Part shown: positions 3,997 through 64,000 of the stretch, one piece after another
Layout: every line of letters starts with the position of its first letter
Position numbering within the stretch: position 1 is the first letter of the stretch
Source: Vermamoeba vermiformis
Lineage: Eukaryota
Reading direction: 5' to 3'
Assembly: GCA_045837725.1 (NCBI GenBank)
Contig: JBEWZL010000304.1
Coordinates: forward strand, 124,001-188,000
Length of the DNA stretch: 64,000 nt
Made by a program: the position numbers and the translations under genes
The notes under the pieces: generated by a model
Told to the model about the DNA's origin: nothing
What the model saw: the letters and a program-made list of their open reading frames with translations, nothing else
Database searches by the model: none

Positions 3997-4382
3997 TGAA
4001 GAGTGACGTACGGTTGCTTTAAATGTGACAACTATTATCTATTAGCAAGAATTAATAAATACCGGTATCCATCGTTTCAAAATCTAACCGTTTCACCTTC
4101 AGAAATAGAAAAATAGAAATATTTCCTAATTTGGTGGTAGATGTGGCACGTACTTTGTTATGTTGTATCTCAAGAAAAAATTACTCATATCCTTTTTTAA
4201 TAAAAAGCAAAAATCGAATATTTTTAGCTCAAGCGCACCAAAGTTTTTTTGAAACTTTCAAAATTGACACGTGTCAATTACTCACCGGCTAATGTCGAGG
4301 AATTAAGACTTGTACTGCTGCGGACGTGCATGCAACATGAAATGGTAGTCATAGGAGGGAGTTTTTAACATTGCTGTAATTT

Positions 4383-7300
4383 TTATTGCTTGGGCTTTCG
4401 TACAAATCGCAGTAAAATGTAGGCGAGAATATTCAACACGACGAACATGCCAGCCAAAATACCCACATTGCGCCAATAATTGTCCGCATTCAAACTGAAC
4501 GCCACCAAAAACACATTCGCACCTAAAAATACAACACTATTAGCACCGTTATATTAATATGTTTGTTATAGTCTTACTTATATCAACGGATCCGTAGCCT
4601 TGCACGCTCAGTGATAAATTCAGTCCGGTCAATTCATTTGCAGCGATTGATTCGAATGCGTAGCTGAAGAACGACAGATAACGCAGCCAAATGAGCCAAA
4701 TAGGAATACTATCGTTGTTGACTAAGAGGCCACTGAATAGCATCAGGAACAATAAAATCGCTGCACTGACGATGCTTCCAACTGTCAAAAAAAAAAACCG
4801 TCAGATCTCGCTTGATCCAAAAATTTTTTCTCATTAAGGCATTATTTAAGAATATTAATATTATTCTATGTTATTGTTATTGTTATTAATAGTATTATTT
4901 ATGTTTCCTAATAAGGAAAGTGTGAGTAAGATATTTTTTTAAAATTACCTGTGACAGAAGGCACGCCAATGCTAATGACGTAGAACATGGAGGCCACGAC
5001 CATGTTGAACAACAAAAACACGAAAATGAACTTCAAAAAGTGCTCGGGGTCACCAACGAATCCAGCCATCCAATAGACTACCACGCCGTAAATCAACGGG
5101 AAAATGATTCGTAGCGGCAGCAGATCCGATAACATCGTCGACAAATAATACGAGGACGTATAATAACATCCATTCGCGCGTTCTTTTTTGAACATGACGC
5201 GATCGCCAATGACTAAAAAAGGAAATATTATTAATATCAATTCCGAACGTGTCAAAAGTGTCAAAAAATGTTAATTGAGCACGTGAAAAAGCCCAAAAAA
5301 TTCGTAAGTGTCAAAGTGTCAAAAGTGTCAAATTTTGGATCCGGACTTACACAAATCAATGGCACTCAAGCAACCAAATCCGAACAAAATCAATGAAAAG
5401 AAAATCATTCCTAGTCTGTTTTGGAATCCTGCCACGTCATTGGCGAGATTGAGGAAAATAACTCCGATGAACACTGCTACAACCACCGTACTATATTAAT
5501 ATGATTACTATTAGACCTCATATATTCAACATTACTTAGTAGTAGCTAATACGTACATAATTAAGTGCGTTCTTAATAACGCTGGATTACGCCACATTTT
5601 AACTGCCTAATTAGGAAAATTGATTGTTAGAATACGAAAAGCGTTCATAATTTACATTGATATTAATTTTGGTACTTACATTACGATGAGCCAATACTAG
5701 GAATTGTTTGTCCCAAGACGATGAATATCTCGCTTCTTTAGCACTAGCTTTTTCTGCAAGAAAGAACGAGGTCAGATCCGGAAAGTAAAAATATTTCCAA
5801 AAAAGGAAAAATTAATTAATTCTTCGTACCTTGCGGTTCATCGTTTTGCTTTGGGAACTTATCCATGCTGACTAACACCTCTTTATCGTCATCATTATTA
5901 TGTTTTTCACCGTCAATTTCATCCACGTTAGCAATGCTCGACGCTAATTTTTCAACAGGCTGCAAACGCAATTCTTCATAGGCACTGGTCAATTTTTGCA
6001 ATTGTTCTTCGCTCTCTTCATTGACAACTGACACTATGAACACAAAATACGAGTCAGTAACAGAACTTCAACAAATGACACGTGTCAAAGTGTCATCTAC
6101 GGCGTTTTTCACAACGTTGTGAAAAATGTCAAGTGAAGGTCTACGTTTGACACGTGTCAAATCAAATACTGTCATTTAGTCGACTTTTTGCGAGCAGGTC
6201 AAAGAATGACATCCAAACTTGACACGTGTCATTTCGAATCCTCACGTGTCATAAATTTTTCACGGGTCAACTGGCTCGTAGTGTCATATCAATTAAAATA
6301 CTTACGCATATAGTCCGCAGGGTTCTCGTATTCCGGACACTTGAATCCTTGCTCGGCGAAGAAATTCATGGCCTCTTGCGCAGGTCCGTGATACACCACA
6401 TTGCCGTTCCACAACAACACGAGCACATCGAACATTTGATAGATCATGCGTCGCGGCTGATGAATGCTGCAAATAATGCTGCAGTTGCGCTTTTTGGCCA
6501 AATCTTGCAACAATTGCATCACTACTGTCGCGTTGTAGCTGTCAAGACCTGAGGTGGGCTCGTCCAACAACAAAATGCGCGGGTAAGTCACTAGTTCCGT
6601 CGCAATAGACACTCTGCACCGCGGAACAATTAGCGAAATTTCGTTGCATGTGATCGACGTGACGTACCTGCGTCGTTCACCACCAGACAATCCGCGGACG
6701 GAGGTATCTCCGATAAGCGTGTGGGCCACGTGGCTCAAGCGAAGATCGGCAATGACATTGCTTACCTAATAAGGAAAGTTAGTACTAGGTACGCCAAAGA
6801 AAATGATTCGACGTACTATTTGTTCTATTTGCGAGTACGGCACGGAGCTGGGCAATCTCAATTGTGCGGAATAAATCAATTGTTCCGTGACTGTTAATGT
6901 TCCGAGCAAACATTCTTCTTGCGTAACATAACTGTACAAACAAATATTAATAACGAATTTTTTTCAGTGAATCATTTACACGAACAAGATTTCTAAATTG
7001 ATCGAATGTAATTACCCTGTAATTCTTTTGAAGTGTTTCGGCAACGGTTTTCCATCCAACAAAACATCGCCCAAGACATCGCCGCGCTTGCCAACGTCAC
7101 TCATAATGTCCAACAATGTCGTTTTGCCAGCACCAGACGAGCCCATGACAGCGCAGACTTGACCGGGCATGATCTTCATATTCACATTTCTCAGCACTGT
7201 TTTCTTTTGCACGTCTTTCTGGCACGAATTGCCAGATCTGATCGTCACTTTGTACTCGACATTGATCAGTTCGAGCGTTGAGCCCTTTGTTGCTGCACTG

Positions 7301-9581
7301 ATCGCTGTGTTTGCCGGCCTGCAAATTAAATTAGATCGAAATATTCGTGGAAAACATAACACGCATAGAAAAATCTGTATTATTGATATCGCCGTAGAAA
7401 TTTCAGAATTTAACACCTCAAAATTTATCGAGATTAGTACCAATATATTATGTGAAAGGTAAATAGTCCTATTATCAATGTTATAATATTATTGGACTTT
7501 TCAAAATTTCATTTTTTAAATATTTCGACGACGTCAGTCTGAGCAGTACGATGCCCATTCGAGTATATCAAATAATAATAGATGAATTATGACGTACCTG
7601 TCTCGTTTCATATCAGCAACATATATAATAAACGGTAGTATTAATAGCACCGCTATGCCAATCGGTAAAACTAGCGCACCCAAAACGATGCCGGTAACCT
7701 AAATGCAAATTACAATTAGCAAATATTCCGTTTAATATTAATAATATACTATTTGACAATAGTACTACTAATTATTATAAATACCTTATCAGTTTCAGTC
7801 GCTACTAAGCCCGTTGGTTTTCCGCACTCGGATGCAGAACAACTTAAACTGACTTGCACGGGAATATCGACCTCTATAATAGTAATATTAAGAAAATATT
7901 TCCTTTTTAGGAAAGTTGAATCTATATTTGGCTTACGATCGAGGGTACAAACTGGATTTTCTTTGTTCTCGCAAGAAAATTTAGAATAGCCTCGAAGATT
8001 ATCCAAGATAAATTGCGCTATTAACAAGAATTAGCTATCATAATTTCTAAATATAGTAATCATCTGTTATAACGACTTACAAATCGTTTCTGAACAGTTG
8101 ACCAAAAGCGGATCCGGATTGCACGTGCAAGCAATGGAATTGCATTCAAATACGACGTTGTTGTTTCCATCGTCTGAAACTTTACAGTCGTACATAGTGC
8201 AGTTAATTTTATAAGGCTGGCCTGCTGTTCTCTTCCACACTACATCGATTTAAAAATTATGATCCGGATGTAGGCAACTTAAATTTGTATAGAAATGGCG
8301 TATTCGAATTCATAACATCATATTTAAATATGTACGTGAGAAATTAACCTACGATAAATCTGGGACTGCGCTGCTTCTACGTCGTAAATGTACGAGATCG
8401 TGCCTTCGCCGAACAACTGCTTTACGATATCCTCTATTTAACGACGAGTAATATTAACTTGATTGCTATAGTACTATAATATATATGATTTAGGAACGTA
8501 CGTTGCGGATAACATTCGAGTATTTTTCGTTTGTACGGAGAAGGCGTTCGATTGCACTCAATCAAAGTGTTGTTTTGAGTGCATGCGTCGTTAGTTGTGC
8601 ACACTGTATTACCAAATTAGGAAATTTGGAAACGTAGGTTGAGCGTTAGCGAAAGAAATTAAATTCAGAGGGATATCTCATGAGCGTTTTTTAACTTAGC
8701 CCAGTTTTCGTTGTGAACTATTTTCCTTATATAGTAGTGCCTCCCTACGTTGCGCAGCATGCCGCCCCCGATCCAGGACTCGTCCAACCTTCGGGCTAGA
8801 CAAGTTCGAGATCAACCTAGTGCCTCTCAGTCGTCTCTTAGGGTTGTTTGGACGGGGGTGCAGTGCACGAGGGTCACTGCTATATAAGGAAGGAATTTCA
8901 TTGAAAATTGAAGTGAGCTAAGTTATCTAACGTGTTTAAGTTATCCCTCTCAGAATTTTGACTTTGGATCTCGTGTAAAGATTAAAATTATATTAAATCA
9001 ATTTAAATTCGCTTACTTCCGCACGTTTGTCCGGTCCAACCATCAGCACAATCACAATGAATCGACCATATTGAACTATTTACACCTGTATCGATATTCG
9101 TCACATCCAACGTTGAACAGCCCAGTGTCGAATTATTTTCGCACTAATAAGTAAAATTAATACTAAAATTAATATAAAATTATTATGTAATCAATTTACA
9201 ATGTACAAGGGATCCAACGGCTCCCAAGTGCCACCCAATCCTGTTGGGCAGTCGAATCCGATGGTATTCGGGTACGCATTGTCGCAAACTTGACGGCAGC
9301 CTATTATAAACGGTATAAATATTGTTGTTAGAATATTTTTAACCGACCTTGAGCGTATCCACTGCTGAAATAACAAAATAAAATTATTGCGCAAATAGAT
9401 GCGCTTCGAAATACAACGTGCATCATTAATAATATGCACTTATAGGTGCCTTATGTACATCATATAATGAAAGTAAACAAAATAATCTAAAACGCGCTAT
9501 TTTTAAATTTTGTCAGCTCACACGATTAACACAAACACATACCGCGGCTTTAATTATATTACGCAGTAGTATTGCGTCCAT
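4383..9581 (-). CDS. ABCG (White/ADP1-like) half-transporter with N-terminal Cys-rich/EGF-like extracellular region
   Basis: Walker A GSSGAGKT, signature LSGGERRRV, Walker B ILLLDEPTSGLD, SIHQP and NPAD motifs, then an ABC2 membrane domain (FKKERANG, WLRYLSFFSYAFE). Upstream exons are Cys-rich (CDCADGWTGQTC) and followed by a TM helix. Stop at 4383; the start near 9581 is uncertain. Confidence 0.9.
5247..5332. repeat. Intronic tandem (A)AAGTGTCA half-site array
   Basis: ACGTGTCAAAAGTGTCAAAA at 5247 and AGTGTCAAAGTGTCAAAAGTGTCAAA at 5307, in the intron at ~5213-5350. Confidence 0.75.
6076..6251. repeat. Intronic cluster of TGACACGTGTCA palindromes
   Basis: Exact copies at 6076, 6148 and 6220, a partial copy at 6242 and several TGTCA half-sites, all within one intron (~6031-6305). 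Confidence 0.85.
8661..8958 (+). ncRNA. Candidate structured RNA (long imperfect fold-back with branched apex) inside an ABC-transporter intron, antisense to the host gene
   Basis: Nested complementary blocks: 8661-8675/8942-8958, 8692-8700/8917-8925, 8702-8710/8902-8910, 8721-8739/8875-8893 and 8764-8778/8847-8859. Non-Watson-Crick positions within these blocks are mostly G-U on the + strand. There is a C(UUCG)G loop at 8789-8794. Identity unknown. Confidence 0.55.
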
Positions 9582-11415: not shown

Positions 11416-11639
11416 GCTTTCTTGCGGCGCTATCAGAAATAAACGCATCCACACGGAACGTTCGCATCGCTTCTTGATTGAACCTATCATTGCTATACTT
11501 ACAGCATACGTTAATCAATGTACTGGCAGATAATTAATTAGCTATGACCAACCACTTCCGATAGATTTTAGGAGCATTTTCTATTTTTGATTGTTTAGAA
11601 CAGCACGTGCGAGAAAAAATCCATCATAATTAATTAATT

Positions 11640-18120: not shown

Positions 18121-18160
18121 ATCTGATCAAAAAGAATAGCGGTTTTCATTCGAATAAAAG

Positions 18161-24639: not shown

Positions 24640-27600
24640 TTAAACCAAAGGCACGAAGCTAAAATGTACAGTGATTAGTTCGGTGTATATTTAAAGGGTC
24701 CAATTATCACTTACTCAACGGTGGTGATGTCTTGCTCGTAGTAGCCGTTGCCAATAGAACCGGACAAACCGACGTAGTAAGTCGAAGTGAAGTCCAACGG
24801 CAAGGGGTTCGTGAAGATTGGGTACTCAGATGTGGCGTTGACTTGAGACAACTAACAATAAAAAGTTAATTATTTGCAGGCATAATAATAATAAATGATA
24901 GTACGACTGTTAATAAACCAATTTTGTATGACACTGCAGTCATGACCGTGAAAAAAATTGACACGCGTCATCGATGACACTTTGACACGTGTCACGCAAG
25001 TTGGTTGAACTTACTCTTAAGGAGTAACCGTCGTAGTTCAAAGCAAATACCACAGGGTCGTTGCAAGTGTAGCGTTGAGGATGAACAGTGTTATAAACGC
25101 TGTTCGCGATTGTTTGACATCCGGGATTGGTACGGAAGACTGGCAAAGGCGAAGACCTTCAATGAACAGGTTAGTTTGGCAAGGTTGAATATATTTGACA
25201 CGTTTTCACGCTTACCAAGAGCAAATATAGAATTCGTTGTAGTATGAGCTGTAGCCAACCATAGTAACATTAGGCACTTGTTGAATGCCGAGACCGGTAC
25301 CGCTCGATGTGAGAACTGATCCGTTGGTAGGAACGGCTTTGGTGAACACAAACGCGAAGCTGCAAGTGATGTTAGTGTCAAGTGTCAAAAAATGACACGT
25401 GTCAAAGTGACTTACCCATCTCCGCCGTTGTAATTAGAGTCGCAGCTCGTAGCGAGCCAATTGAAGTTAGCTGTGAATCCGTAGTTCATCTTCACTGCTT
25501 GAGGATGGAGCATCAATCCGGCATTTGCAATGCTGGAAAATCCGTTTGTGAGTGTCAAGGCAGCTCCGTTGACTTGCGCGCTTCCTCGAAGAATTGGGTT
25601 CGAGGCGGCATCAAAGCCGTATGAAAAGTAACCGTCAGGTTGTGGGTAATAACCAACAAATTTCCAGTTGGTGATTGTTTGAATCATGTAACGGGAGTCA
25701 GTTGACGCGGAAAATCCTCCGTAGTAGAATCGAGGATAAATCGTGACACTGCGTGACACGTAGAGGACGCCGTTCATGAACAACTGTCACGACCGTTAGA
25801 AATTTCGTTGAAAACTACGCATCGGACTTACTCTCAAAGTGAACGAGTCATAAGTCAGAGTAAAGTTCACTGGAGTTCCACAGGCGGGGGTTAAAGAAAG
25901 TGGCACTCGGGTGCAGACGTTAGAGTTTAGACCAATCGGCGCAGTACCCCTACATTATGATAATTAACATTCCTGCCAACGGGTAATTGCTGTTCGACGT
26001 ACCAGTCACAAAGAGTCAGTGATCTGCCACGTGCGTCGTAGCTCATCATGTAGACGTCAGGAACGTTTCCAATGCCCAGTTCATCGGGAGTAGTGGTTTG
26101 AACTTGCGCCAATGTCGGGGCAAAGCGCGAGAAGTAGTGAGAGAAACTAAATATTTCCATATTAGGCAAGTGTAACGCGGAAAGAGTGCCTCTTACCCAG
26201 TAGCAGGACTTCCACTGCAATTAGATCCGGTCCAAGTGAACGATGATGTAAACTTGTAGCTGATGTAAAACTGCGAGTCTTTAACATATGCAGCACTTGA
26301 TTGTTGAGAGTAGTTTGTAAGTACGAGGACTGGTGAAACGGAAACGACGGATCCAACTCCGACAAAGTTGCTTGGAGCCATGACATTAGTGTTGACGGCA
26401 GTTGCCTTGATTGACCAATCAGAGATCTCCTGTTGGAAATATCCTTGACCAGTGGCTGCAGAAAGACCAACGTAGTAAGGTGAATTGTCAATGACCACAT
26501 CCGTCGAAGAAATTTGAACTTGACCATTCACGGACAACTATGAACCAATTATAAGTAAGATATGTTTATAATATTATTTTCATACCGATAGCATATTGTC
26601 TAATGTGTAATCGACTTCAATGGAGTAGTTCGATCCGCAAGTGAACTTCGGATTTGGATTCGCGACCTTGAAACAATCATAGTGGATAGAATTTACAGGA
26701 GAAGTCCTATACTTTAAGCGTAAGATCGCATATTATTCGTTGAATATTCGCTAGTAACTTACCAATTGCAAATGTAAAACTCGTTCCAAGTTGCGCTGTA
26801 GCCAGCCATCACAGTGTTGGGAATGTATTGCACGCCAAGACCTCCTCCAATAGATAGTGCTAGTTCTCCATTCGTAGGGTATGATTTAGTAGCAAAGAAC
26901 GTGAATCTATTCAAATAAAATGTTGGTTCTTGATGATCCAAAAAAAAATAAGATATTATTTCTTATTAAGGAATATAAAACAAATTTGGTTGAGCAATAT
27001 AAATAAATCGGTAATAATTACTCATATGAATAATCATGTTATTTCTTACCCGTCAGCTCCGTTGTACAAAGAGTCGCAGCCCGATGGTTCCCAAGTGAAT
27101 GTAGTTCGCAAGCCAAAGCCAAATTTCAACGAACTAGGATACAGAGCCACACCTGCTATGAATTGTGTCGCGTCGGTCAATCGGATCCGACCTAACTGAC
27201 TCGTCGCAGAACCAAAGTACTGCACGCTAAGACTGTCGATTGAATCGTACTCGTTGAAGCTGTCAGTAGTCGAATAGAACGACCATTGCGTGATGAATTG
27301 ATTGAAGTAAGCACTGCCAGTACCACCGCTCAAACCGACGTAGTAATGATCGACGTCAAGAGTCTTAGGATAGCTCGCAAGCAATGTAGTGTAGTTATAG
27401 ACCTACAAAATCGATTAAATTAAAAAAATTGCAAATATTTTGAGTTTTCAGTGAAATAAACTTACCGAGAGAGTAGCGCCATCAAAGAAAATTCTCATGT
27501 TCATTGTTTGTCCGCAACTTATTTTACCGATATCAGTTTGATTGCACGAAGGGTTCATATAGAACGGAGTTGCAGTGGGCGTGGTCCTGAGATCCAATAA

Positions 27601-28102
27601 GAAAAAAGTCGTTCGTGGATTTGCGGATTCGGGATTAACTTACCATTCACAAACAAACAACTTGCCGAGGTAAGCACTGTATCCAATCATGAAGGTATTA
27701 GGTACGGTGCCAATGCCAAGATAATAGCCTGAAGAAGAGATCGTGGGTGCATCTTTCGTCAAAAAGAACGAGAACCTAAATACGTTATTAGCTTCATATC
27801 CATATATAGTCAAATGATAGTATGTAGACTTACCCATCACCTCCACCATTAGCGGCATCGCAAGTATCAGGAACCCAAGTGAAGTTGGTCGAGAACCCCA
27901 GATTCGCTGAAACTTTTGTCGGGTAATACGCAAGTCCTGCCGTATTAGCCGTAGCAGGCGTAAGTTGAAGAGTAGTTCCGTTCACTGTTGCAGCGCGCAG
28001 GGTCACCAAGTTGGTCGGAAGCGTGAACTTGTAGCTGAACTGTTCAGCCACTGCAGATGCGGTCAATAGCGCGAGCGCTAGCCACCAAAGAGATCGATTC
28101 AT
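24640..28102 (-). CDS. Secreted protein with four tandem legume (L-type) lectin-like domains, paralog 1
   Basis: Signal peptide MNRSLWWLALALLTASAVA. Four repeats contain L.LT...AG...F.T.FTW...(G/A)DGF.F and YYVGLS(G/A).TG, typical of L-type lectins. There is a 5'UTR intron. Confidence 0.85.
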
Positions 28103-30752: not shown

Positions 30753-33700
30753 TCAGTTAAACCCACGCAAGCTGAAAAAAACATTATTAGTACACAAATA
30801 TTCAAAATATGGCGTCGATAACGTACTATACGTAATTGCTGACTTGCTCATAATAGCCATTTCCAACGGATCCGGACAGACCAAAGTAATAAGACGATGA
30901 AAGGTCCAATGGGAATGGCCCAGTAGTGATCAAATCAAATTGTAAGTTTGACGCGGTAACATTGTTGAAGTTGAGCTAAAATAAGATTAAGTAAGGATTC
31001 ACAAATATAAGGTCCAATACTCACTCTAAAATTATAGCCGTCATAGCTAAGCTTTATGAAAACTTGGTCATTGCACGTAAGGGGCTGCGGATGAATTAAA
31101 TTGACCGCGTTGGAAACATTTTGACACGCGGGATTGTCGCGATAAGAGCCGACCAAAGGAGACGCCCTGAAGAAGTAAAAATATTAGTTTAAATTACGCA
31201 TGCGTTGAAGCAGAAAACAGTGACACTTACCAAGAACAAACATAGAACTCGTTGTAGTATGAGTTGTAGCCGACCATCGTAACATTAGGCACTTGTTGAA
31301 TGCCGAGACCGGTGCCGTTCGACGCTAGCACGGAGCTATTGCTGGGAACAGCTGTCGTGAACACAAACGCGAAGCTGTAAGTGAAGTTAGTGTCAAGTGT
31401 CAAAAAATGACACGTGTCAAAGTGTCAAAGTGTCTTACCCGTCACCACCGTGCTGCACAGGATCACAACTCGAAGCATTCCAATAAGATGCTGCAGTAAA
31501 GCCGTACTTCATGGTCAATGGTGTTGGACTCAACATTAACCCAGCATTTTCATCGCTGTAAAATCCATTCGTAAGCTTCAACTGAGGGAAGTTCCACGCA
31601 GCAAGCACCGTTCCTGCACTGCCCAAAAATGTTGCAGTGTCTGGTAACCCGTAGTACACGTATTGTTGCGTGGGAGTAACAGCGGTAATGCTCAATTGGT
31701 AGCCAGAAATTTGTTGCGTGAAGGAGTTTGTCGATATCGCAGTAAATCCGCTATAGTAAAGGCGTGGAAAAATTGTGACACTCCTTGAAAGCGTGAAAGT
31801 GTCGTTGACGTACACCTGTAGTATAAAAATAAGTATAGTGGATATTCGAGCTCTTATTTTGTCACAAATGTCAAAGTGAGAGATATTTATGTTTGACACG
31901 TGTCAAATAAAATGACACCGTGAAAAATTTGATATTTTACCTTCAAACTGAAAGCATCATAGGTAAACTTGAAGTTCAACGAAGTATCGCACACGTAGCT
32001 TGGCATCGTTGCTGTTGAACATATTGTTGATGAGAAGCCCGTCGGCGATGCACCCCTACGATCATTCCGTTTAATACCAGGGCTTAAGAAGCACAACAAA
32101 TGTACATACCAATCGCAAATCAATAAGCTATTCATTTCCACATCATAGCCCATCATATAGACATCGGCCACATTTCCAATGCCGAGTTCGTCTGGAGAAG
32201 TTTGAATTTGGCTAGCACTTGGAGTCAAGCGCGAGAAGAAATACGAGAAGCTGTAAATATTCAGTGAGTATACTCACATAATAATAAATAACGTTACCCT
32301 CGCGAAGGAGTTCCAAAACAGTCAGATCCGGTCCAAGTGAACGAAGATTCAAACTGGAAGCTGATATCCTCCCAACCACTGCTATAGACAGCCCCGGCTT
32401 GATTTGGCCCGTTGGTCAATAGAATAACTCGTGTATCACTCGAATTGAAAACAGCGGCGCCAATACCGACAGATAAATAGCCATAGTTGAGCTCGACAGC
32501 ACTGGATCTGAATGACCAATCGTAGATGTCTTGCTGGAACCATCCTCCGCCAGTAGCACCAGTGAGTCCAAAGTAATAATTCTTTGAATTGAATATCACA
32601 TCGGTAGTTGCGATTTGTACTTGACCGTCAACCGACATCTGACAAAAAAAGTTAGTAAATTGCTAGAATTTCGATATTAAGGATTAACTTACTGATAGTT
32701 TGTTGCCAATGTAAGCGACTTCAATTGAGTAGTTTGATCCACAAGTGAACTTTGGGTTGGGATTTACGACCGTGTAACAAACATAACGGAACAGATCCGG
32801 TCGCGGATCAGTCCTATCCAAAAAGGTTAGTACCATCTAATACTAGCGATTCTCTAAACATACCAGTTGCAAATATAGAACTCATTAAAGGTGGCACTAT
32901 ACGCCGCCATCACGACGTTCAATTCAGAGTTGCCCCACGCATACTGAATTCCAAGACCTGAGCCTTGAGATTGTATGACAGAGCTATTCGATAAATAAGG
33001 AACAGCAACGAACGCAAATCTATTGACAAATCGAAGTTAGATCTAGTTTGTCGAAGACTAAAACATATCGAAGTATCATACCCATCAGCCCCATTGTATT
33101 CAGTATCACAATTCGACGGTGACCAAGTGAATGAAGTTTTGAATCCAGTTCGAAGAATGATCCAGTTGTTGTAAAGTACAGCGCCAGCCTGCGATCCGGA
33201 TGTGGTCAAGCGCAACGCTCCATCGCCCGTAGGAATAGCGTCACCAAAGAACTTAATGTTGCTTGTCATTGTAGAGAGTGCAAGATCAGTGAAGCCGCTG
33301 GTAGTGGATTGGAAAGACCATTGCGTGATGCTTTGTTTGAAGTAGAGCGCACCAGTACTGCCGCTCAAACCGACGTAGTAATGATCCAGATCCATGCCTT
33401 TAGCAACAGTAACGAGCAACATGTCGTTGTTATATACCTAATGTATATTATTAGGATATGATTTGAAGCCAATTTTGTTCGGATCTTACGGTCCAGAAAG
33501 TGCCGTTAAAGTTGATCTTGATATTCATACTGCCACCACATTGAACGCTGGCAACATTAACGACCGTACATTCAGGAGACACGTCAAAAGTATCAGCCAA
33601 GGGTGTTGTCCTAAATATAGTAGTTCAGACCCAACTTGTGTTTTGGATGTCGGCCGACTTACCAATCGCAGACGTAAAGTTGACCCACAGAAGCACTGTA

Positions 33701-34140
33701 GCCGACCATATATGTGTTGGGGACATTACTAATGCCAAGGCCTTTATCTACTGAGTTACTGACTTGTTGATAAGTCGGAGCGTCCTTCGTAAAGAAGAAG
33801 GCAAATCTGCAACACGAAAAAAAAATCAACTTGTTTGTCACGCTTTAACTAATACTAGCATTAAAACGTACCCTTCTGCACCAGCAGGAACCGAGCAGCT
33901 TTCAGGAACCCAAGTGAAGTTGGTCGAGAAACCCAGATTCGCGGACACTTTCGTTGGGTAATACGCAAGTCCAGCGTATCCAGAATAAGGGGATGTCAGT
34001 CGCAAAGAAGTCCCATTGACGACGGTATTGACAAGAACAAGGTTTGTTGGTAAAGTGAACTTGTAACTGAACTGTTCTGCCACGACAATTGTCGCAACAG
34101 CGAGCCCAACGATGAACCACAATAATACTAATCGATTCAT
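30753..34140 (-). CDS. Secreted protein with four tandem L-type lectin-like domains, paralog 2
   Basis: Same architecture and intron positions as 24640-28102, with shared EQFSYKFTLPTNLV and AGLAYYPTKVSANLGFSTNFTWVP. The exact stop (30753 or 30757) depends on which last donor site is used. Confidence 0.85.
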
Positions 34141-51900: not shown

Positions 51901-54900
51901 AAGCGGTCTTGATCTTGTTCCACAATCGTTGCGCTTCCTTGGCAGGGGCGGTGTGGTCGGGCTGATTGGCAGCCTGTTGGAAGCTGAGTGAAGGGTTCTT
52001 GCTCAACACGTGTGCGCTCGATTTGACAAAGTTCATGAACTCGCGAATCTCTTGCTTTCCGGCAAATTCTTCGGTGTCTTCAGCACAAGCAAGGTTGTAA
52101 TCCGCAATCAAATCGAATGTCATTTCGTACGAGCACTTGATTTCGATGTATGACATGTCGCACAACACCTTTTGAAGCTGCTTCCACATCTTTCCAGCAG
52201 TCAAGTGGTAAGGCAATTCTCTGATCGCGCGTTGATCCGTTGCACCGAGCCATGTGCCATCGGTCTTAGGATCAGCTCTGCTGTAGAAGTGTTGAGCAAT
52301 CTTCTCGTGAATCTTGATCTCAGACTTGGCGATGCTCAAGTATCGCTTCTTGACCGCGATAGCCATTTGTTCATGGAAGAAGTTGAGCGTGGTCTCGCCA
52401 TTAGTCGAGTCACCTGAAGGCTTCAAGTAGTAGCCCAGACTACGGTACAGTCTGTTCCAGTGTTGTCTCACTGCTTCAGGTGAGGAGTCCAAGTTGTTGG
52501 TCTTGTTGTAGACTTGGAGCAGATCTACCATTTCGTTCTCCATCAAGCCACCTCTGCTGCACAAGATGAGAGTAAGTGCAGTCTTGACGAATTCTTTGCC
52601 GTGGTCTCCCTCCAATCGTTGCAACACTTCGTCAAAGAGCTTAGGAACGGTGGCACCAAGATTCTTGATTCTTTCGGAGATTTGCTCGTAAACTCCGAAC
52701 ACTCGCAATTCCTCGCAAGCCACAACGAGGTAGAGCGGCTTAGTTGCCTCGGCCTTGCGCAAAAGAACGCGCATTTGGTTGTTCATCGGTCTCTCGTCCA
52801 ACTTTTTGTGGTACTCCCAGAGAATTTCACGGACGAGTTCAGTGCGTTCAGCAACGCTCAAAGGAGTCAATTTCAACTCGGACATCTTGAGGGCAGTGCG
52901 CTTCTTGAGGATTTCGTAGGGCTTAGTCTCCACAGTAGCACTGACGATGAACTTGCAAGGAAGCTCTTCAGGCAACCAATCGAGTCCTTGCGCGCGATGC
53001 ACTTTGTCGTTAAGTTGATTCAAGGCGTCAATGACGACGACCAAGCGACCCTTGAATGAGGCCTGTTCCAAGAGGATCGGGAACTGTTGGGTCAACTCCT
53101 TAAAGTCTTCTGGAACGTGCACGTCAAGCGCGAACGCGTGCTTAAGTTCCAAGCACAAACGACGCAAAGTCTTGCGGATGTCGTTTGATTCAGGGCTGGC
53201 GTTGACAAAGTGCGGCAACACGAATACGTCGGGATTCTCTTCGGCGTATTTCTTGGCGAAGGCTGACACAAGAGCTGTTTTACCCTCACCAGGTTTGCCA
53301 GAAACGACCATCAATTTGCCCTTGTTTCCGTTGGCAAACTTCTTCATGCTGTCGAGCAAGTCCTTTCGGCCAATGAACTTGCGAGCCTTCTCTTCAACCA
53401 GAGCTTGGTGGAAGGATCTCTCGACGTGCAAATCTTCCTTGTGGCTTTCTTCTTCGGGGAAGTGTTTGCAGATGGCGCCCCACAAGTCGTTGAAGACTCG
53501 TTCGCCAAACTTTTCCAAGCCTCCAATCATAGGCTTGCCGTCTACAATTCCGTGCCATTTAGCGGGATAGTCGAACACGGGCAGTCCGCTGTCCTTGATG
53601 GTCTTCTTCAAGTTATCCATCTTAGACTTGGCTGTAACGTCACCAGCCTCGAAGTACTTCTTTTGTTCCTTGGGTACTTCATTGAGCGAGTTGGGATCAC
53701 GGATGTAGAAGAAAGTGCCGCCTTGTTGCTTGGCGACTTCGGGGTTGTTCAAGCCGGCAGAGTACATTTCCAATTCAGTGATGGAGCGACCGGCAGGATA
53801 GTTGTTGAGCCAAGAGAATCGCTCGTGTTGTGGGACCTCGTATTGAGCAGGAGCCCAGCCATAGCGATCACCGAGCATACCAACGAAGAATGGACGGCAT
53901 CGCTCCACTTCGTCCAAGCACAATTGGATGGATTTGCCCAATTGTGATTCTTCTTCGGTGACACCCCAACGAAGATCAACTTCGACCAGATTGATCTTTC
54001 TCTTCTTGCATCGTTCTTTGAGCTCAGGGAACACGATGCGAGTGAGGTAGTCACGTTCACCGTGCATGTCCAAGAAAGTGGACGAGATGAATACACGGGC
54101 TTCACGCCATTGGGAGCCAACAGTGATGTTGGGGAAGGTTTGCTTTTGGCCTTCCTTCTCGTAGATGCTTTCGAGCCATCTCCACCAGGGCGAGACTTCA
54201 GCCTCTTGAGGAGCGTTGTTGTTCTCGTCCTCCTTAAGGCCGGCAGCTTCGTCGATGTGCTCGACGTAGTTGAGTTGGTTGTTGTCACCACGTTCAGCAA
54301 TGAAGCGAAGGATCTGCTCGCTGAAACCAGTGATGGCAATGTTGTTAGGATTAGCCTCATCGTCAGCAACCATAGCGCGTCCAGATCCGCTGAGATCCAC
54401 GCTGACGAACAATAATTCGGGGTTGACTTCTTGGCGGTACTTGGTGAGCAAGTTAGCCAAGCGATTCTCGTCTTCGGAGGCGCTGATGACCTTGAAGGAC
54501 AACACCAACAAGTTGTCAATTCGCTTCTTCTTCAAGATAGCTTCCTCAAGGTAATCGTAAGGGAACTCGTTACCGCCGCCCAGTTCAGCGGCCTTTTGAG
54601 CGACGATCTTCATGTTATCCAAGATCGTGCCTTCGATCAAATCAACGCCAACGTGACAGTTCTTGTGAAGACCAGAGGGTGAAGAGAACAATCTGAAGTC
54701 GCACTCTTCGCAGACGTACTTGCACATGAGACCGAGCAAGTAGCCAACCTCTTGAATGCTGCGCACGGAGTTACCCATACCCTTGGCACCATTGCATTGA
54801 ACCTTGCTAGCCTCGCTAGTGTTGCAGAACACAACAGTCGAACCACGGATCGGATCAACGTTGTGAATGGTAGCCAACTTGACTGCAGTGTCAAGTGCCT

Positions 54901-56545
54901 TGCGGTAGTCAGCGAAGACGTTAGGAGGAGGCATCATGGCAGGGATGATGGGCTTCTTCTTCTTGCGCTTCTTGTCGGCAGGAGCGCCAGGCTTATCTTG
55001 ACCAGACACGAGCTGCTTGAAGGTGTCAAGATCAGCAGGGATGACTTCGTACGCAGAGAAGAAACGGAACGGGAACTGTCGTGATTGAGCCACGGCACGT
55101 TCGTTCGACAATCTGTTTTGAGCCCACTTGTGGTACTTGGGATTCACACCAGTGTAGATCAAGTTACGCAAGTTACGAAGCATAGCCATAAAAGGCAACT
55201 TCTTGTGCTCGATCAGTTCCTCCCAAGCCGAGGCTTTGTTGCCCTTGGCAGAGAGCAGGGTCTCCCAAGTTTCAGGAGTAGGCAACTTCATTCTTCGGCC
55301 AGCACGTTCAATCTCAAACTGGCCAGACAGTCCACTCAAGCGGAAATCAGACTCGGCGACTGGATACTTCTTGCCCAAGAGACACATGACGTTGTAAACG
55401 GGCTTCGACAAATGGAGCTGTCGAATCATTTGCTTCATGGTCAACATGGGCTTGTCGGGCTTATTCATGCCCAACTCGCGCATCTTCTTTTGCTTGCGCT
55501 TGATGGTACGTTCTTTGTTGTACTTTCCGAGTTGATAGACATCAAAGTTAGGGAATTTATCGACCATTGATTTTCTCAAGCAGGTCGGGATTGACTTTCC
55601 TTTGAGGACTAAAAATAGAACATTGTGAGCAAATCTCGCGATACGAGGCTAATAGAGTCGATCTAGTTGTCGTTACAGTAACTCTGAGACTTACGTTTGT
55701 CAGGCAATGTTTGATAGGTTGCCGCGACATCAAGCCAATCAGAAGGCAAAACGATGATTTTGCTAAAGTATTTGCGAACATAAGGCTGGCACTCAGTAAT
55801 GTTGCAAGCGAGAGCAACCAAATAGTTAGCGGTTGATCTGATTTGAATCAAAGTTAGAAAATATTGAATCATATTATTTCCGTCTACCGCACGTACCTAA
55901 TGTTTAAGTCCTGACGAACGTACAACGCGAGCTTAAGTACAAACTCAGGGTCATAAAATGCAATAGTCTTGCAGGATTTAGTAATCTTAATGTAAGTAGG
56001 ATTGGTTGGGGAGAGTTTTGGTTCGTTGATTAAAGCAGCAGAGACCATATTCAATAATTTCACCTAAAGAGACCAAGCGGTGAGTCACCAAATCCGACGG
56101 AGATATTTTTGGCAGATGATCTTACCTTGGTCTGCTTGAGCTCTTGTGGGGTCATGCTTTCGAATTCTACGTGAGTCGCTTGGGCGTAGTCGCTAAAATA
56201 GCAAAATCAAGTTAATAGCTGCTTCAAAAAGGTGGCTAAAGTAAGTCAATCTGGCTCAATTCAAAAATAAATTTTAAAAATCAATATTCAGCAGAAAAAT
56301 AATTAATTCAGTACTTACATTTGTGGCTGGTTATCACGCACCAATTCCATAGCTTGCGGGTTCTGAGTGGCCGTTACAGTTTGAGTAGCCGATCCAAGAC
56401 CTCGTCCACGAACAGCACCACCACGAACAGCGCCACCACGACCCCCGCGAGCAGCACCGCCACGTCCTCCGCGTCCTCCACGAGCAGGACCACCACGACC
56501 TCCACGAGAACCTCCTCTACCGCCTCTGTTACCGCGTCCCGACAT
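48974..56545 (-). CDS. TEP1: Telomerase/vault-associated protein TEP1 homologue (RGG - TROVE - vWA-like - DUF4062 - NACHT-like NTPase - WD40 repeats)
   Basis: TROVE motifs DPEFVLKLALYVRQDLNIRST, FDVYQLGKYN, PETWETLLS, LPFMAMLRNLRN and SRQFPFRFFSAY. DUF4062-type RVFISSTFLDMHGERD...VDLRWG. P-loop GKPGEGKT with VVIDALNQL. About 20 GH...WD repeats. Four short 5' exons plus one ~6.6 kb terminal exon. Confidence 0.95.
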
Positions 56546-57054: not shown

Positions 57055-60000
57055 TTATCTCAAATCGACACGAGCAGCATTTCGTGGTTCGATCTTGAGC
57101 GACTGCTCTTCCACAATGGTTTCTTCCAAAGTGGGCAGGTGATTAATGACTCCTTGTAAGTCGTCTTCGATTTCAATGTCATATTTAAACTGTTGGAACC
57201 GCAAGACGGAGTTAAAGATCAGGTTGTAGATCATGCGTCTCTTGGCGAAGTTGATCAGCTTGACGTTGTTTACTTTGACCCAATCGGGATTTCCTTCGTC
57301 AATGAAAGTCAAATCCTTCATAACGACACCCCTAAATAGCATTTGGTTAGTATTTGCGTTCAGGATTGCCAACCTAGAATAAATTTGTGGATGCGATCCA
57401 AAGCTCGCTGGAGCTTCGTGGTTTTTGTTTGAATTTCATAATGCTACGAATAATTCCTCGACTATTGTACTTCAAGTGGGTACTTACAAATAAGGAATGC
57501 ACGGGCCTTCGATCTTTTCGATCTCCGCACGGTAATTTTTGAAGCTGCCTTGCATGTCCATTAATTGTTCTAACTCTTGCAGAACTTGAATAAGTTGCTT
57601 AGGTACTCGCGCCATAGTCCACTTTAGGCGAGACACTATTAATAGAACAAAAGATTAGTATCAAAAATGATTGGATCTGCACGACAAGATCTTACCAGCA
57701 AAATGATTCAGACCAGAGATGATCGCGGTTAATAAGTGGAAGTTGTTCATGTCTCGTAATCGCTTTGCGATCTTAATAAACTTGATCACCAAGTCAACAC
57801 GCTTCTTCAGTTGATGTTCGAAGCAAACAGTCGTTGTGACCCACCTTGGTTTGCAACATTAGTCAAGCTGCTAGAAGAGATCGACAAACGTTCAAAACTT
57901 ACGAGGCTACTGTATTGAACATTTCAATCATTTGGCCAACCATGCCATCCTTATTCTTGAGCCAGGCTTGGTTCAGCAATTCCGAGATCTGACACGAGCA
58001 CGTTAGATCCGATAGTTTGAGGAACTTGGATTTCTTACCTTCATTTGTGAGAAAACATTGGAGAGTCTGATAGTCAGTTGCTTGGCAATATCATTTGTGC
58101 GAAGCTCAGAGCGAGTCCAATCGACCTTATCAATAATGCTCATGTTCTTAAAATCCTTCGCAGTCAACACTTTGTAGATGTCTCTCGTCGAGGCATTTCT
58201 CTTCAACTTGAAGCTGTTGCTTCGGGATACTGAAGGACTGGCATCTCCAGGCTGTCCATCACTTTCTTTCTGTTATTGAATATTATTAGCAAAAGTTGAC
58301 ACGTGTCAAACATCACTCATGAACGTACTCTAAGTTCGAATAAAGTGATGACCAAGCGCGTTACTGTTTCGTTCTTGATAGTAGGATCCTTTGTGACGAC
58401 GTTGCGGACCAAATGTTCGAGTTTCTTATTTACATTGACTTCTTTAGCATCTTCGGGTGAGTAGTATTTCTCGATGAAATGACCCAAAATGAAACACACT
58501 CGCAACTTGATGCGGCGTTGAAGATGAGACTTTTCTTTTGGTACTTCGAACCTGAGAGAGATATTATTAGGTAAGCTAAGGGCTTAAGAACGTCACGTGA
58601 TTCTACTTACAATTCAGCCAACTTGTCAAGGAAATCTTCGACGCTCATGAACGTGGATAAACTTCCCAAGAACGGATTCAAATAGTGCTTGTCGCCTATG
58701 ACAGTCGTTAGCACGTGCAAGTTAGGCAGAGTTCGTGAGGACTTACCAAATTTGGTGTTAACGAGCGCCAAGATCAGTTGGTACAATGAAGAGGCCTCGA
58801 CAATAAGTTCTTCGCCTTGTTTCGTGAACTGAATGTCGTCTTGCTTGCTCAGGTCTTGTTCGACATCGGCCCAATTGATCTTCTTTTTCGCCAGCTCACG
58901 TCTCGCAGTCAATTTAGCTTCAAAATCTTGACGTGTGATGACAGTGACGCGATTGCCTTCGTTAATGTTGTACTCGAGTAAAGACTTGTTGATGTCCATT
59001 TCAATCATCTTGCCGTGCACTTTGCGGTAGGTAATCAATTGACCCACTGGCGCGTTAAGTTTCGGGAATTGACTGGACTCAACGACCTGCTTGAACGGGA
59101 TCGCGGAATCAACTTTGACAGGTGTCACTTTCTTATCGCCGGTCTTCAATTGGATAGTGATGAATCGTCTAAGCAATTGCAAATTCATCTAAGCCGATTG
59201 GTGTCAGTAAGTTTTTCAATATTTTTTTGCACTGACTTACTCTGTTGTTAGGTTTCAGTTGGGCTAATGTCATGTTGCCATCGAGCCATGAGAGTGCTCC
59301 GTCAACACTAGCCGATACAAAGCTAAAGTCTTTAGGATCGCCGAGTTGAGTGCGGATTACTGCTAGGGAGACCAACTTGTTGACTTTCATTTGAGGATCC
59401 GCTCTGAATTCAATTGAATTAGTTACAAGAAAGGATTATAATATTTGTAAAATAGGTGGAACTAATTATTAAATAATAGAGTTCTTTGAGAAAGGCGTAC
59501 CTGAATTTTTCTTTTTGTCTGGATGCACCTTCAGAAGATCTCGCTCGGCCGCTAGCAGAATTTTCTTCATAGTAAATAATCGTATCAACGAATTTAGGTC
59601 GCAGCTCGATAATGTTCGATTGAGTAACGACGGAGCTATATTTAGCCAAGGGCTCCGTGTCTTCAAGTGGCAAGTAGAATTTCTCGCCGTCGCCTTCAGC
59701 AGCCTTGACAAATCTCCATTCGGAGAGTTCAGCGGAATTTCCTTCGTTTTCATTGTGTTTGTAGTAAAGACCCCATTCTTGCGACAGATCGCCTTTGAGT
59801 TGCTCGACCAAAGCCAAAGTCAATTCGCTGCATTGCTTGTTTGCATCAATTTCGACGATATGATCTTCGGTCTTAGTACCAGACTTATATTGAACTGTTA
59901 AAGTCCATGGCTGGTATTTAAACTCGAATAAAACCTAAATTTTCTTTGATTAGATCTGACGTTCTTTCCATACATAGAAGGTAAAGACAAAGCATAATCG

Positions 60001-63000
60001 GAGCATTTCCGTAAAGAGATCAATATTCGAATGATTAATATACTTACAGGTCCTTTAATATTACGTTGGAATAAGGAAACGTCTCCGTGTAACCAAGATC
60101 CAGGCTCGATCATGACTTGTGGTACCTCGCTCTGTAAATTAATGTTTAGTAAATAGCGCAAATAATATTGTCATAATTATTTAATTAATTAGAGTTGCGT
60201 TCACCGAATTTAAAATCCTAGGATTTTAGTCCGTATTACGGATGTAGCTAAATTATGTGATTTTGGGTATGCAAGTAGTGCTTACTTTACGAGGCGAGGA
60301 ATCAGGTAATACATTTCCAGGCAAGAACAGTCCAAAGTAATGGAATTCGCTTTCAATGAACCCTTTCTTCATGAGTTCTATGATTATTCGTTTGAATGTT
60401 GTGGTGGCGTCGTAAGAGAGCAGTAAATAATAAAAACCAAAAGTATTGGTCACTATAACCACAAAATTCTCGTCCAGACGGAAATGCTGGCGGTTTGCAA
60501 CGAAATACTAAATAAGGAGATTAGTTCAAGTGAACCAGATCAAAAAGACACGCGAGATTGAACGGGAGATACATGAATTATTGCAAGAATTTGGATTCGT
60601 TCCAATCGTAAGCGGATAAATTATATTCCTCGTTATAAAATTTCGATAAGAAATGGAGCAGGATCCGTCAAGAAAATTTAAATCAACGTCCGATCCAACT
60701 AAAAATAGCTTACCTCAACGAGCTTTTCTCTTCCATGTTGCACAAATAGCTCTTCCAGATCATCGTTGAATGATTTATGAAAGGTTCGCATTAAGGGCTG
60801 AATATCTTGCGAGGCTCGAGATTTCCATTCCTGAATGATAAAGATTAAGTAATCTCCATTAATCTCATCGTTTAGGATTTAACTTTAAGAATATACTTTA
60901 AATAAACATAAACAATATATTATACTGTTTAAATATGAGCTAAATACTTACACCGAGGTAAAACACGATGCCCACGGCAATGAATTCATCGCGGATCTTC
61001 ATTCGGGTTTTTAAGTCCTCAGTATGATGTAGAACTGTATTAATGAACTCTAATACGCATTGGACGTGCTAAATAGTAAAAATTAAGTATTAGTAAAGCA
61101 ATATCCAAGCACTATATTAGTTGTCATTTAACAGCCAGATCGTTCTCATTACTACCGTTATTAAGCGTGTATTTGATGCAAAAATGATTGATTATTTGTG
61201 ATATTGTATCGAAGGTGTATACTTACTTGAGGATAAGAAAGAGATCCATCGAGGTAGAAAAACAGCGGATCCATTCGATTGTTCTTTGTCGGTGAAACAG
61301 CAAATTGAGCGGAGAATCCATCGAGAATAGTACTATAACATTAGACCGTTAATAACGGTTAATAAAGCGAATACTGCGTGACACTTTGTTGACATTTTTT
61401 GACACGGGACTTTGCGTTGTTTTGACACGCTACTTACGGAATGCCTCGCGGAGCCTTTGTAACGATTTTTCCAAGTAATTTGATGACATATAAATACATT
61501 AATGGCACGTCTTTGAGCGTCAATAATAACATTAGAACGCGTCCCATGTTGACTGATTGTTCCATCGCTTCGAACATTTCATAAATATGGTCCTAAAAAT
61601 AGCATTAATGAACGTATATAGATGCTAATATTAATAACAATAAAGCTTGTTTGTTATTAATGAATCACATAATTTAGTTGATAAGACTTACGTTTGCAAA
61701 ATAGGCTATAATCGCCAATAAATCTAAGATAATTTCTTTAACGTCCTCAGTGAGCCTATAATAAAAAAGAGAACATTACTATGAGAATTCTATTCACAAG
61801 AATTTTTTGGTACGCGCGCGTTGAATAAAAATTTAGCCGCGAAATAGTTGCAAAGCTTGACTTACTTAGTTTGCGTATTGACTTTGAGTAAATATTCGAA
61901 TATATACTTGATTCCTCCTGACGATACGAATGACGTCATCCATTGCGGAGTTACACGGTGAATAACAGATCGAAGTGCTGCAATGTCGATCCAGCTCAAT
62001 GACGGTTTAGCAAGTGCTTCTAAATAATATTCTACTTGTAATTTGCGCGGGTCATCTACTTCCCCGGTAAGAGATCCGCGTCGCGAGGTTGATGGCGATG
62101 AATCAGCAGAATCACTATCGCTGTTACAAAAAAACGAGTCAGTACGAATAAATCGAAAAGTGGCGTATAAATATGCCTTCTAAATGATTGCGTATTAATA
62201 TAGCGCTAAACATTTTATTAGATGAATAGTTTTTATTCGTTGAAAGATGACGCGATCCAGAATCAAAATAATTTTTTGGTCAAAATAGAGATAGTTCGCG
62301 AGTATAAATATGCGTAAAGCTAATTAACTAATGAATAATAATATTTTTTGTAATGTGAAAGCATTGTAACTGTTGCGAATTGTCTAAATTTGGAATGTGG
62401 ACCTAAATAACTGAAACGCTTCATAAAAAGCAATAGCTATTATTTAAATATGCTCTATACTATTATGAATATTAGCTTACCTATTTCTCCTTTGCAATTC
62501 AGGCGGCAACTCACCAAAAAATTTAATTGAAGCTGAAGATCTTCGAGCGGGTACGGCAGGTGCTTTTAAAGATATTAGTACGAGCGTCTTGCTTATAATA
62601 AATATACTATCGATGGTATCATTCGATCACAAAATTTGCGTTGGAACTCTTAAACATGTGACAGCTTGGCAGCACGTTAATTAAATCAATTCAACAAAAT
62701 CTGATGGAAAATCTTCTATAGAAATCGATAGGAAATATTCAATACGAGGGCTAAATATGCCTTTGAAGCTGACAAACGAATATTTAAAAATTGTTACCTA
62801 AAACCGGAGATGTGGGCGCTGAATACGCTGAACCAATTGTAAATCCTCTATTTCTATTTTCTGCATTACTAGTGCCATTTGCTTGTTGAGGAGAGCCCGG
62901 AGCGCTGCCAATTAACGACCGAGTAGTGAGCGATCCGACGGATTTAGGCGCTGCGGGTACTGGAGGCGGCGTGTTAACTCTTCTGACAGTACCCATGGAA

Positions 63001-64000
63001 GGGTCCGATGAACGCAGTTGTGGTGTTGATATTGACGAGTTCATAGTAAGAGTGCTTGATCCAAATATAAACGAGCTAGAATCTCCGTGGCTGGATGATA
63101 ATTCAGGCTTGGATTTTTTTCTAATGAGAATTGGATTCACTCCTAATCCGTGCGTTGGACTTGATGGCGTGCTTTGTGAATTGCTAAGTAAATCAGCAAG
63201 ATTGCCTTTTCGCGACGATTTTTTGTCGATCTTGACTGTAGCAATTTGATCTAGAGCCAAAAAAAATTAATAAATAATTTTTGGCGTTGATTTACTATTG
63301 ACTTGTGTGTTTACAACGGACAATTTAAAAATAATTCTTCAGGCGGTTTCAAACAAAAAAAATTTGACACGTGTCAAACATTTACATTGTGCTTTGATAT
63401 CATGAAGGCACGCTTATTATGTACATAGATTTTCGGGTCTTAAAGTTACTTGTATACTTTATACATAACCGAAGCAGAAAAATTTAAATTCAAGAAATGT
63501 GTCAATTTGTGAACCGCGAATAAAAAGTACTTAAATTGAGCTGCTTATGCTATGTAATTACTTACATTTGCCTTCTTTATCGACTTCTAGCGTTTTCATG
63601 TTCGCCCAAAGAATTTTCGCTTGCGATTTCCACTTGGTCTTCGAGTTTTTGCAATTGTTTCCGTACAGCGACAAGATCGACAAACTTAATTGCGTCTCGA
63701 CCTCCGCTGGTGTTGTTTCTATCATATTATTGTGCAGGTATAATTCTACTAACGTTGGAAGCTTCAATAATTCCATAGGCAATTGCTCGAGTTTGTTGCC
63801 GGACAAATCCAACGTTTGAAGGGCATCAAAGTGCTTAATTTCGTTAGCAGTCGATGTTACTAGCTTGTTGTTCGATACATCTAATACTTCTAACGAGGAA
63901 ATTAAGCCGTGAACGGGTTCAGGTTGATACCTCTCGAGCCAAACCCAAATCTGGTTATTTTGGAGGAACAACGTGTTGAGGCTTTGCATGAATAACAACT
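57055..64000 (-). CDS. RasGEF with N-terminal LRRs, Ser/Pro-rich linker, formin-type GBD/FH3 domain and ubiquitin-like folds (Dictyostelium GefL-like architecture); 5' end outside the window
   Basis: LRR LDLSGNKLEQLPMEL. GBD/FH3-like WMTSFVSSGGIKYI and LEFINTVL...TRMKIRDEF. CDC25 motifs IAKQLT, ELLNQAW, NNFHLLTAIISGLN, FKNYR, PCIPY, KDLTFIDEGNPD, INFAKRR and SLKIEPR. Confidence 0.9.

Follow-up and report, generated by a model that had tools for sequence, protein, structure and literature searches.

We have analysed a 64,000-nt stretch of the Vermamoeba vermiformis genome (contig C304:124001-188000, in a genome of 43.3 Mb and 309 contigs), referred to here as the window, in which the 12-bp palindrome TGACACGTGTCA recurs. 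The 12-mer consists of two TGACA(C>G) half-sites placed head-to-head across a 2-base centre. A preliminary description of this DNA had listed ten exact copies and a variant, TGACACGCGTCA, at 24959, and all of them were found at the starts given there. It had overlooked a twelfth match, TGACAGGTGTCA at 59116, which falls in a predicted coding exon. Dinucleotide shuffling (100 shuffles) gave an expectation of 0.09 matches with at most one mismatch, and no shuffle (0/100) reached the 12 observed; the recurrence was thus as rare by chance as had been assumed. Copies are spaced on average one per 6.4 kb in the window, against one per 15.5 kb in the genome.

Palindrome copies and their host genes in the window

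Gene models were obtained with a self-trained gene hidden Markov model, after masking the motif and its half-sites. As described before, nine copies lie in introns of four genes and one between two convergent 3' ends. All seven host introns have GT..AG ends, and in each the spliced frame is open and retention brings stops in three frames.

The copy between genes (4265..4276) is located 268 bp from the stop of the plus-strand gene and 118 bp from that of an ABCG-type transporter gene (4383..9463, minus strand; Pfam and gene model, the 5' end of the model being uncertain). A donor-like GTGAGT directly precedes this site (4277-4288, minus strand), so that a 3'-untranslated-region intron of the ABCG gene is possible. 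Within the gene, intron 5213-5350 holds an array of lone half-sites with a period of 7-9 bp and the word CGTGAAAA (5247..5332), and intron 6034-6305 holds a cluster of three dimer sites (6076, 6148 and 6220; cluster 6076..6264) with extra half-sites and partner words (described below) at 6090-6113 and 6246-6264. The 72-bp spacing of these three copies does not reflect a recognisable tandem repeat, the units sharing only 15-24 of 60 bases outside the 12-mer. CArG-like words were also observed at 4125, 4907, 5606, 5797, 6765, 7902 and 8612, six of them in predicted ABCG introns and one in the ABCG 3' gap.

The ABCG gene is crossed by CT..AC joints in the contigs of two runs that are probably RNA. 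One of the runs (X1) skips intron 5213-5350, and its depth drops from 3.7 to 0.3 over 6042-6275, in the three-dimer intron, with no joint across 6034-6305 among those listed. The RNA contigs, which do not reach 4265, also revealed two small ABCG exons missed by the gene model. Two raw runs were excluded: X6 gave 11 reads and X8 gave 16, almost all of which matched only in part and were <90% alike.

Four motif-bearing introns belong to two lectin paralogs, namely the gene of a legume-lectin-domain protein (lectin-1; 24640..28102, minus strand; Pfam and gene model) and that of a paralogous protein (lectin-2; 30826..34140, minus strand; gene model and paralog comparison). In lectin-1, intron 24852-25014 carries a partner word (24947), the one-mismatch site (24959) and a dimer site (24983), together spanning 24947..24994, and the 56-nt intron 25360-25415 carries a dimer site (25393) with half-sites (25375..25410). 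In lectin-2, the paralogous 64-nt intron 31375-31438 carries a dimer site (31408) with half-sites (31390..31434), and intron 31816-31940 carries a dimer site (31894), a half-site (31913) and a partner word (31894..31927). The module at 24947..24994 is missing from the paralogous intron of lectin-2, and the 31894 module is missing from that of lectin-1. The paralogs are otherwise diverged, but share a high-identity tract of ~200 bp (25208-25415 vs 31223-31438) made of the common motif intron and the next exon, which probably arose by gene conversion. Since the two introns are near-identical, the lectin-2 cluster at 31390..31434 is not an independent copy. One copy of the tract has an 8-bp half-site duplication.

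The fourth host gene encodes an LRR ... RasGEF protein (57055..64000, minus strand; Pfam and gene model) and extends past the window. It has lone dimer sites in the 59-nt intron 58270-58328 (58297..58308) and in the 315-nt intron 63251-63565 (63365..63376), the dimer site TGACAGGTGTCA, with a GG spacer, in a predicted coding exon (59116..59127) and an array of lone half-sites in intron 61333-61437 (61379..61430). This array, like those at 5247-5332, 25375-25410 and 31390-31434, had been noted previously and was located again. The window also contains a TEP1-like gene (48974-56545, minus strand) with TROVE and many WD40 repeats, a 6.6-kb final exon and an RGG-rich N-terminus, and a recent tandem duplication of a fibronectin type III protein gene (41894-44408 / 45388-47843), ~94-96% identical including introns.

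Half-site geometry and genomic distribution of the word

The abundance that had been proposed for the palindrome was borne out by genome-wide counts, which gave 2,793 copies of TGACACGTGTCA (CG centre) in the genome and 4 of a reversed control. The CC/GG form TGACACCTGTCA had 1,060 copies and the GC form TGACAGCTGTCA 124, against 33 for all four A/T spacers. The three 2-base spacer classes thus amount to 3,977 sites, whereas TGACA..TGTCA pairs with 3-base centres total 106. The half-sites prefer C to G by ~4.75, and independent half-sites would predict 1,177 mixed sites, compared with the 1,060 observed.

Position was studied in an 855-kb sample, to which contig C3 contributed 340 kb, the region around the window 115 kb and six further contigs 400 kb. 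It is not a random sample, because C3 was picked for its many listed matches and C263 for its TALE genes. Here, head-to-head TGACA..TGTCA occurred 105 times at 2-bp spacing and 0-7 times at each other spacing from 0 to 7 bp. Intronic TGACAC numbered 157 (43.9 in shuffled sequence) and GTGTCA 109 (20.7), 38 of each within exact palindromes. A general tendency to perfect palindromes was rejected, the next perfect 12-mer palindrome having 11 copies against 68, and we found no nucleosome-length periodicity between motif copies in the sample.

These 68 exact copies (one per 12.6 kb) comprised 49 intronic, 14 coding and 5 intergenic ones, corresponding to densities per 100 kb of 28.8, 2.8 and 2.7, respectively. 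The absence of exact copies from exons therefore holds for the window, but not for the genome, as 14 of the 68 sampled copies lie in predicted coding sequence. Likewise, the marking of introns stood as an about tenfold enrichment; what is marked is not a subset of introns but the promoter-distal parts of genes, coding exons among them, together with convergent 3' gaps. Among complete gene models, coding copies numbered 13, against 0.3 under synonymous shuffling, and the 68 kb downstream of stops held 7 copies. The 79 kb upstream of start codons held 0 exact copies, as expected from the window, where none had been seen upstream of genes.

Inside genes, the word avoids the beginning. Only 2 of 308 first introns had an exact copy, and the last two-fifths of introns by rank held 31 of the 44 carriers. 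For the CG, CC and GG forms, intron density was 0 up to 250 bp from any start codon and climbed to 9.8 per 10 kb at distances above 3 kb, and a distance term added to a model of length and GC raised the log-likelihood by ~14. Intronic sites near the 3' end were found in 16 of 104 convergent and 4 of 84 tandem genes (p=0.03), and sites in the gap in 4 of 73 convergent and 1 of 184 other gaps (p=0.02). The convergence numbers are small, and both the promoter-distance and the convergence results come from one sample. Taking start codons as a proxy, the location is that of distal enhancers, with clustered and conserved sites lying away from promoters.

On a larger scale, the CC form is clustered: five contigs have 13-24 copies each, of which 8-16 lie within 70 kb. 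The C3 cluster is a domain of 46-51% GC with tightly packed genes, which we take, naming them from their predicted proteins, to be of the housekeeping type. At ~410-480 kb of C3 (L037-L043), even the coding exons are full of TALE-, E-box- and MEF2-like words, and similar clusters were seen on C8, C11, C12 and C13. Many contigs measure 540-580 kb; these may represent small chromosomes, each with a single domain of this kind. On C11 (516.5-520.4 kb, L134-L136), the introns of one gene, presumably with an HMG-box-like sequence, hold seven exact palindromes and three composites with the partner word; this gene is a candidate for a strongly regulated target.

The intron enrichment would also suit an RNA-level splicing element or hairpin, and the preliminary description had included a splicing-linked element among its readings. 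Some copies do abut the donor or overlap the branch-point zone. However, the donor-to-site distance varied from 3 to 385 nt in the 44 motif-bearing introns (of 1,879), and the half-sites are strand-symmetric (lone half-sites 66:61). Intron length and branch-point frequency were unaltered, motif introns having the same median length as the others (59, p=0.52) and branch-point words in 0.77 of cases vs 0.82. Folding was no better than in shuffles for three of five introns, the two paralogous lectin introns reaching z ~-2.8 through half-site pairing. Copies are moreover present in coding sequence and between genes, and the common CC/GG spacer breaks the perfect palindrome. We regard an element acting in RNA as very improbable.

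Conservation in a relative and companion words

Scanning metagenomes with a beta-COP exon gave 23 loci, three of them from close relatives (L106, L116 and L128; 87-91% protein identity). These three represent one organism, as 1,283 of 1,309 overlapping aligned positions agree. Across three orthologous beta-COP sites, 29 of 30 arm bases were kept: both intronic sites retained 10/10, the CG centre having become GG in one and CC in the other, and the site in the 3' gap retained 9/10. As a baseline, fourfold-degenerate sites were identical at 233 of 383 positions, and aligned intron bases were ~35-45% identical in five of six other-position sets (38/51 in the sixth). Fourfold sites inside exonic half-sites or E-boxes were identical at 12 of 13 positions, against 7.0 expected from the same codons (p=0.02). 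At this locus and in this relative, orthologous sites thus keep the arms and tolerate C/G exchange at the centre. The same switches speak against the CACGTG E/G-box, pointed out in the preliminary description, as an essential core. The exact palindrome was not found in the 20 distant beta-COP loci. Named organisms with beta-COP matches include dictyostelids, Planoprotostelium, Arcella, Balamuthia and plants, at 48-54% identity, which by itself makes an amoebozoan affiliation likely; homologs of the TEP1-like protein did not place the lineage. The second predicted beta-COP intron (L041, C3:455.9-456.2 kb) is missing from the relative's contig L128.

Conservation in place also bears on whether the word was left behind by a transposon or introner family, as a remnant or footprint, or serves as its target. 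Thousands of dispersed copies, and modules gained or lost between the paralogous lectin introns, would be compatible with such an origin. Sites that persist at orthologous positions speak against it, as do the in-frame coding copies and the motif introns, which are not longer than others. In agreement with the earlier view that there is no transposon body, an all-against-all BLAST of 81 flanks returned overlaps, one paralog pair and 18-bp matches on neighbouring copies only, so that the flanks share nothing beyond these. We give a mobile-element origin almost no credence.

The palindrome has a spaced companion. Genome-wide, GTGTCA was followed by TTTTTCACG within 3-30 bp in 171 cases, with 1 for the control; 0 matches to this composite were found in viral contigs. 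Among 99 spacer lengths obtained from 100 listed matches, 75 were of 3-8 bp, with a peak at 7. The 20 composite loci fetched, some of them overlapping, all lay in predicted introns (60-323 nt), and 17 had an exact palindrome in the locus. The longer motif introns of the window also hold TTTTTCACG.

Other words behave alike. In the 855-kb sample, words that we assigned by consensus, and thus presumptively, to MEF2, CArG and E-box types (a MEF2D motif is published) were over-represented in introns or coding sequence and rare close to starts; MADS-box matches are present in the genome. With these words distributed alike, the palindrome appears as the strongest member of a wider pattern. In the same sample, CAGATC/GATCTG was enriched in every compartment, without promoter avoidance. 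Sequence upstream of starts was rich in ACCACAA/CAACACA words, and sequence downstream of stops in TGTA(A/C)ATA.

Candidate readers and possible function

The preliminary description had proposed a DNA-binding factor as reader and had pointed to TALE homeodomains for the half-sites. Both proposals gained support from the sequence, the second because the geometry matches published TALE dimers and TALE genes are encoded. In the accessible text of the respective papers, a TGIF1 crystal has two monomers on ATTGACAGCTGTCAAT, with TGACA read by an Arg-Arg-Arg helix (PMC6158717), the MEIS3 site is TGACAGGTGTCA (PMC5449588), and the strongest PKNOX2 dimer consists of two TGACANN with a two-base overlap (PMC5934673). 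As in these homodimer sites (the TGIF1 word TGACAGCTGTCA, MEIS3 and PKNOX2), TGACA halves are arranged here head-to-head around a 2-base centre with T/A flanks. Among the forms in this genome, which encodes related proteins, the MEIS3 word ranks second in frequency and the TGIF1 word third. Amoebozoans are known to have TALE genes, as far as the accessible part of the source goes (PMC6219170), and a profile search returned ten TALE homeobox matches in the genome. One protein (L056), in which the NARRR recognition helix is intact, has its closest matches in PKNOX1, TGIF2LX, TGIF1 and Meis; W-F-(I/T)-N-A-R-R-R is retained in several of the genome's TALE proteins. Two divergently arranged TALE genes (L058/L065, C263:147.2-151.0 kb) are themselves in a motif-dense region, next to a gene with six dimer-form sites and 26 half-sites, many within coding sequence.

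The sites differ from known TALE homodimer sites in favouring a CG centre, in occurring as thousands of perfect, promoter-excluded copies and in their partner word, which is TTTTTCACG and not a PBX/HOX site. All in all, a TALE protein probably binds these sites as a dimer.

Several observations weigh against a TALE reader or against a function at promoter-distal sites. The preferred half-site is TGACAC, while the cited animal TALE sites carry TGACAG at one or both halves. A literature search on the yeast Cup9/Tos8 motif gave no confirmation that Cup9 reads TGACAC. The tandem half-sites repeat at 7-9 bp, which are not obviously the PKNOX2 head-to-tail spacings in the accessible text of that study (PMC5934673). 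The distribution was read from self-trained gene models, with start codons in place of transcription starts, and in a non-random sample. Local GC strongly predicts the sites (p=8e-7), a result that a conversion-driven process would likewise produce. The distance to the closest start was not separable from that to the start of the gene itself, so the convergent effect may only reflect promoter distance. Promoter exclusion is unusual for an activator. Conservation was seen in one relative and at one locus, where one conserved site shares a base with a donor and another overlaps a likely branch point; this overlap with splice signals weakens the conservation signal and does not remove it. Finally, CANNTG is present in every TGACA-NN-TGTCA.

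This last point agrees with a bHLH dimer as reader, with an unusually long flank preference (TGA-CANNTG-TCA). Five bHLH matches are present in the genome, and CAC and CAG being E-box half-sites, the multiplicative spacer pattern fits a bHLH protein too. The word TCACGTGA is also enriched in the same domains as the palindrome, yet it is mostly exonic (68/89), with the palindrome mostly intronic. Together with the 145 of 189 lone intronic half-sites that lack an E-box (CANNTG), and with the exact agreement with published TALE dimer geometry, this makes a bHLH reader quite improbable. Two further families were considered. A plant- or CREB3-type bZIP G-box requires an ACGT core and favours a GCCAC half-site; the bZIP-like TGCCACGTGTCA had only 57 copies, against 1,060 sites without ACGT, and this candidate was rejected. 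No T-box (PF00907) match was found in the genome, and the control genomes gave none either.

We tentatively favour, with slightly more doubt than confidence, the reading that these are selected promoter-distal TALE dimer sites acting as intragenic enhancer-like or chromatin elements. The 12-mer would be the optimal double-stranded DNA site for a dimer of TGACA-reading TALE proteins, the same protein would read lone and tandem half-sites, and at some sites it would work beside a second factor reading TTTTTCACG 3-8 bp away. Purifying selection would keep the sites in transcribed DNA and away from promoters, mostly in non-first introns, where sequence is free, and also in coding exons and convergent 3' gaps, with the highest density in GC-rich, gene-dense housekeeping domains. 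With the MEF2-, CArG- and E-box-like words, they would make up elements inside genes that behave like enhancers or open chromatin and so influence promoters nearby. The distribution was established in one sample and selection at one locus. Given binding, an enhancer-like effect seems slightly better founded than a repressive or neutral one, because of the spaced partner, the other factor motifs and the concentration in housekeeping domains and convergent pairs.

The same TALE site could also be repressive, a TGIF-like factor with deacetylase co-repressors barring cryptic or antisense initiation in gene bodies and at 3' ends. Promoters would then be free of sites because the factor would silence them, which agrees with the absence of exact copies from the 79 kb upstream of starts and with the steady rise with distance. 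No fixed position would be needed, and TGIF1 is described as a repressor in the accessible text of PMC6158717. Against this, the density is highest in housekeeping-gene domains, and the MEF2-, CArG- and E-box-like words share the distribution. The factor families of these words are mainly activators. We consider repression unlikely.

Finally, the sites might have accumulated through non-adaptive drive, by biased gene conversion or mutation protection of protein-bound alleles, piling up where tolerated and being purged near promoters. Bacterial DNA uptake sequences, in which one short word occurs far above chance and enters coding sequence, accumulate likewise in some bacteria. The word studied here resembles them in both respects, but it belongs to a eukaryote, matches a transcription-factor dimer site and avoids promoters, and to our knowledge no uptake system is known. 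Drive would account for a density that tracks GC at domain and within-gene scales, for the excess of coding copies over synonymous shuffling, for the similar behaviour of several unrelated factor motifs and for the shared lectin intron inside an apparent 200-bp conversion tract. On the other hand, the close-coupled two-factor composite (75 of 99 listed spacers of 3-8 bp) and the multi-site clusters in longer introns suggest a selected grammar, and orthologous sites persist in place despite spacer changes. Drive is therefore improbable in our view; if true, words bound by proteins would have reshaped coding sequence in a eukaryote.

Returning to enhancer-like elements, three published systems offer comparison, each as presented in the accessible part of its report. 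For Dictyostelium, probably of the same supergroup, 1,165 enhancer-like elements are reported (PMC11754127); these putative regulatory elements are likewise over-represented in convergent gene pairs, but were defined by ATAC (assay for transposase-accessible chromatin) and histone marks, with no DNA motif given in that part of the report, whereas ours are defined by a conserved word alone. Capsaspora is also a unicellular eukaryote with animal-type transcription-factor motifs. Its regulatory sites are promoter-proximal (first introns and 5' UTRs, untranslated regions) and depleted in gene bodies, the reverse of the gene-body distribution found here, and distal enhancers are called an animal innovation (PMC4877666). 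In ctenophores, loop anchors have a GC-rich motif bound by CTEP1/CTEP2, and loops are reported absent in animals' unicellular relatives (PMC12221973). That motif is similarly abundant and lineage-specific, with conserved intronic and intergenic sites; it differs in being that of an animal, in its zinc-finger readers, in having promoter sites too and in the loops seen by Micro-C. The site type is thus already known. We did not find its gene-body distribution in the literature searched, which mostly leaves out subscription papers; supplements of papers on amoeba genomes or chromatin may list the motif. The exact 12-mer appears there in two papers, both apparently on Ebola virus.

The placement of the word inside genes, away from starts, suggests control from gene bodies rather than promoters. 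The genome may even encode an intragenic enhancer or loop-anchor system of ~4,000 TALE dimer sites and a dedicated partner factor, with sites kept out of promoters and gathered at convergent genes and in a single housekeeping domain on each large contig; as a whole, this is conceivable though rather unlikely. In the published view, as far as the accessible texts convey it, regulatory sites of animals' unicellular relatives are promoter-proximal, and distal enhancers and loops arose in animals (PMC4877666, PMC12221973). In the genome studied here, a conserved word whose distribution is the opposite of that of promoter sites comes with a partner motif and with ten candidate readers, and these make the question of distal regulation testable. 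If such an enhancer or loop-anchor system exists, promoter-distal multi-factor regulation would not be an animal innovation.

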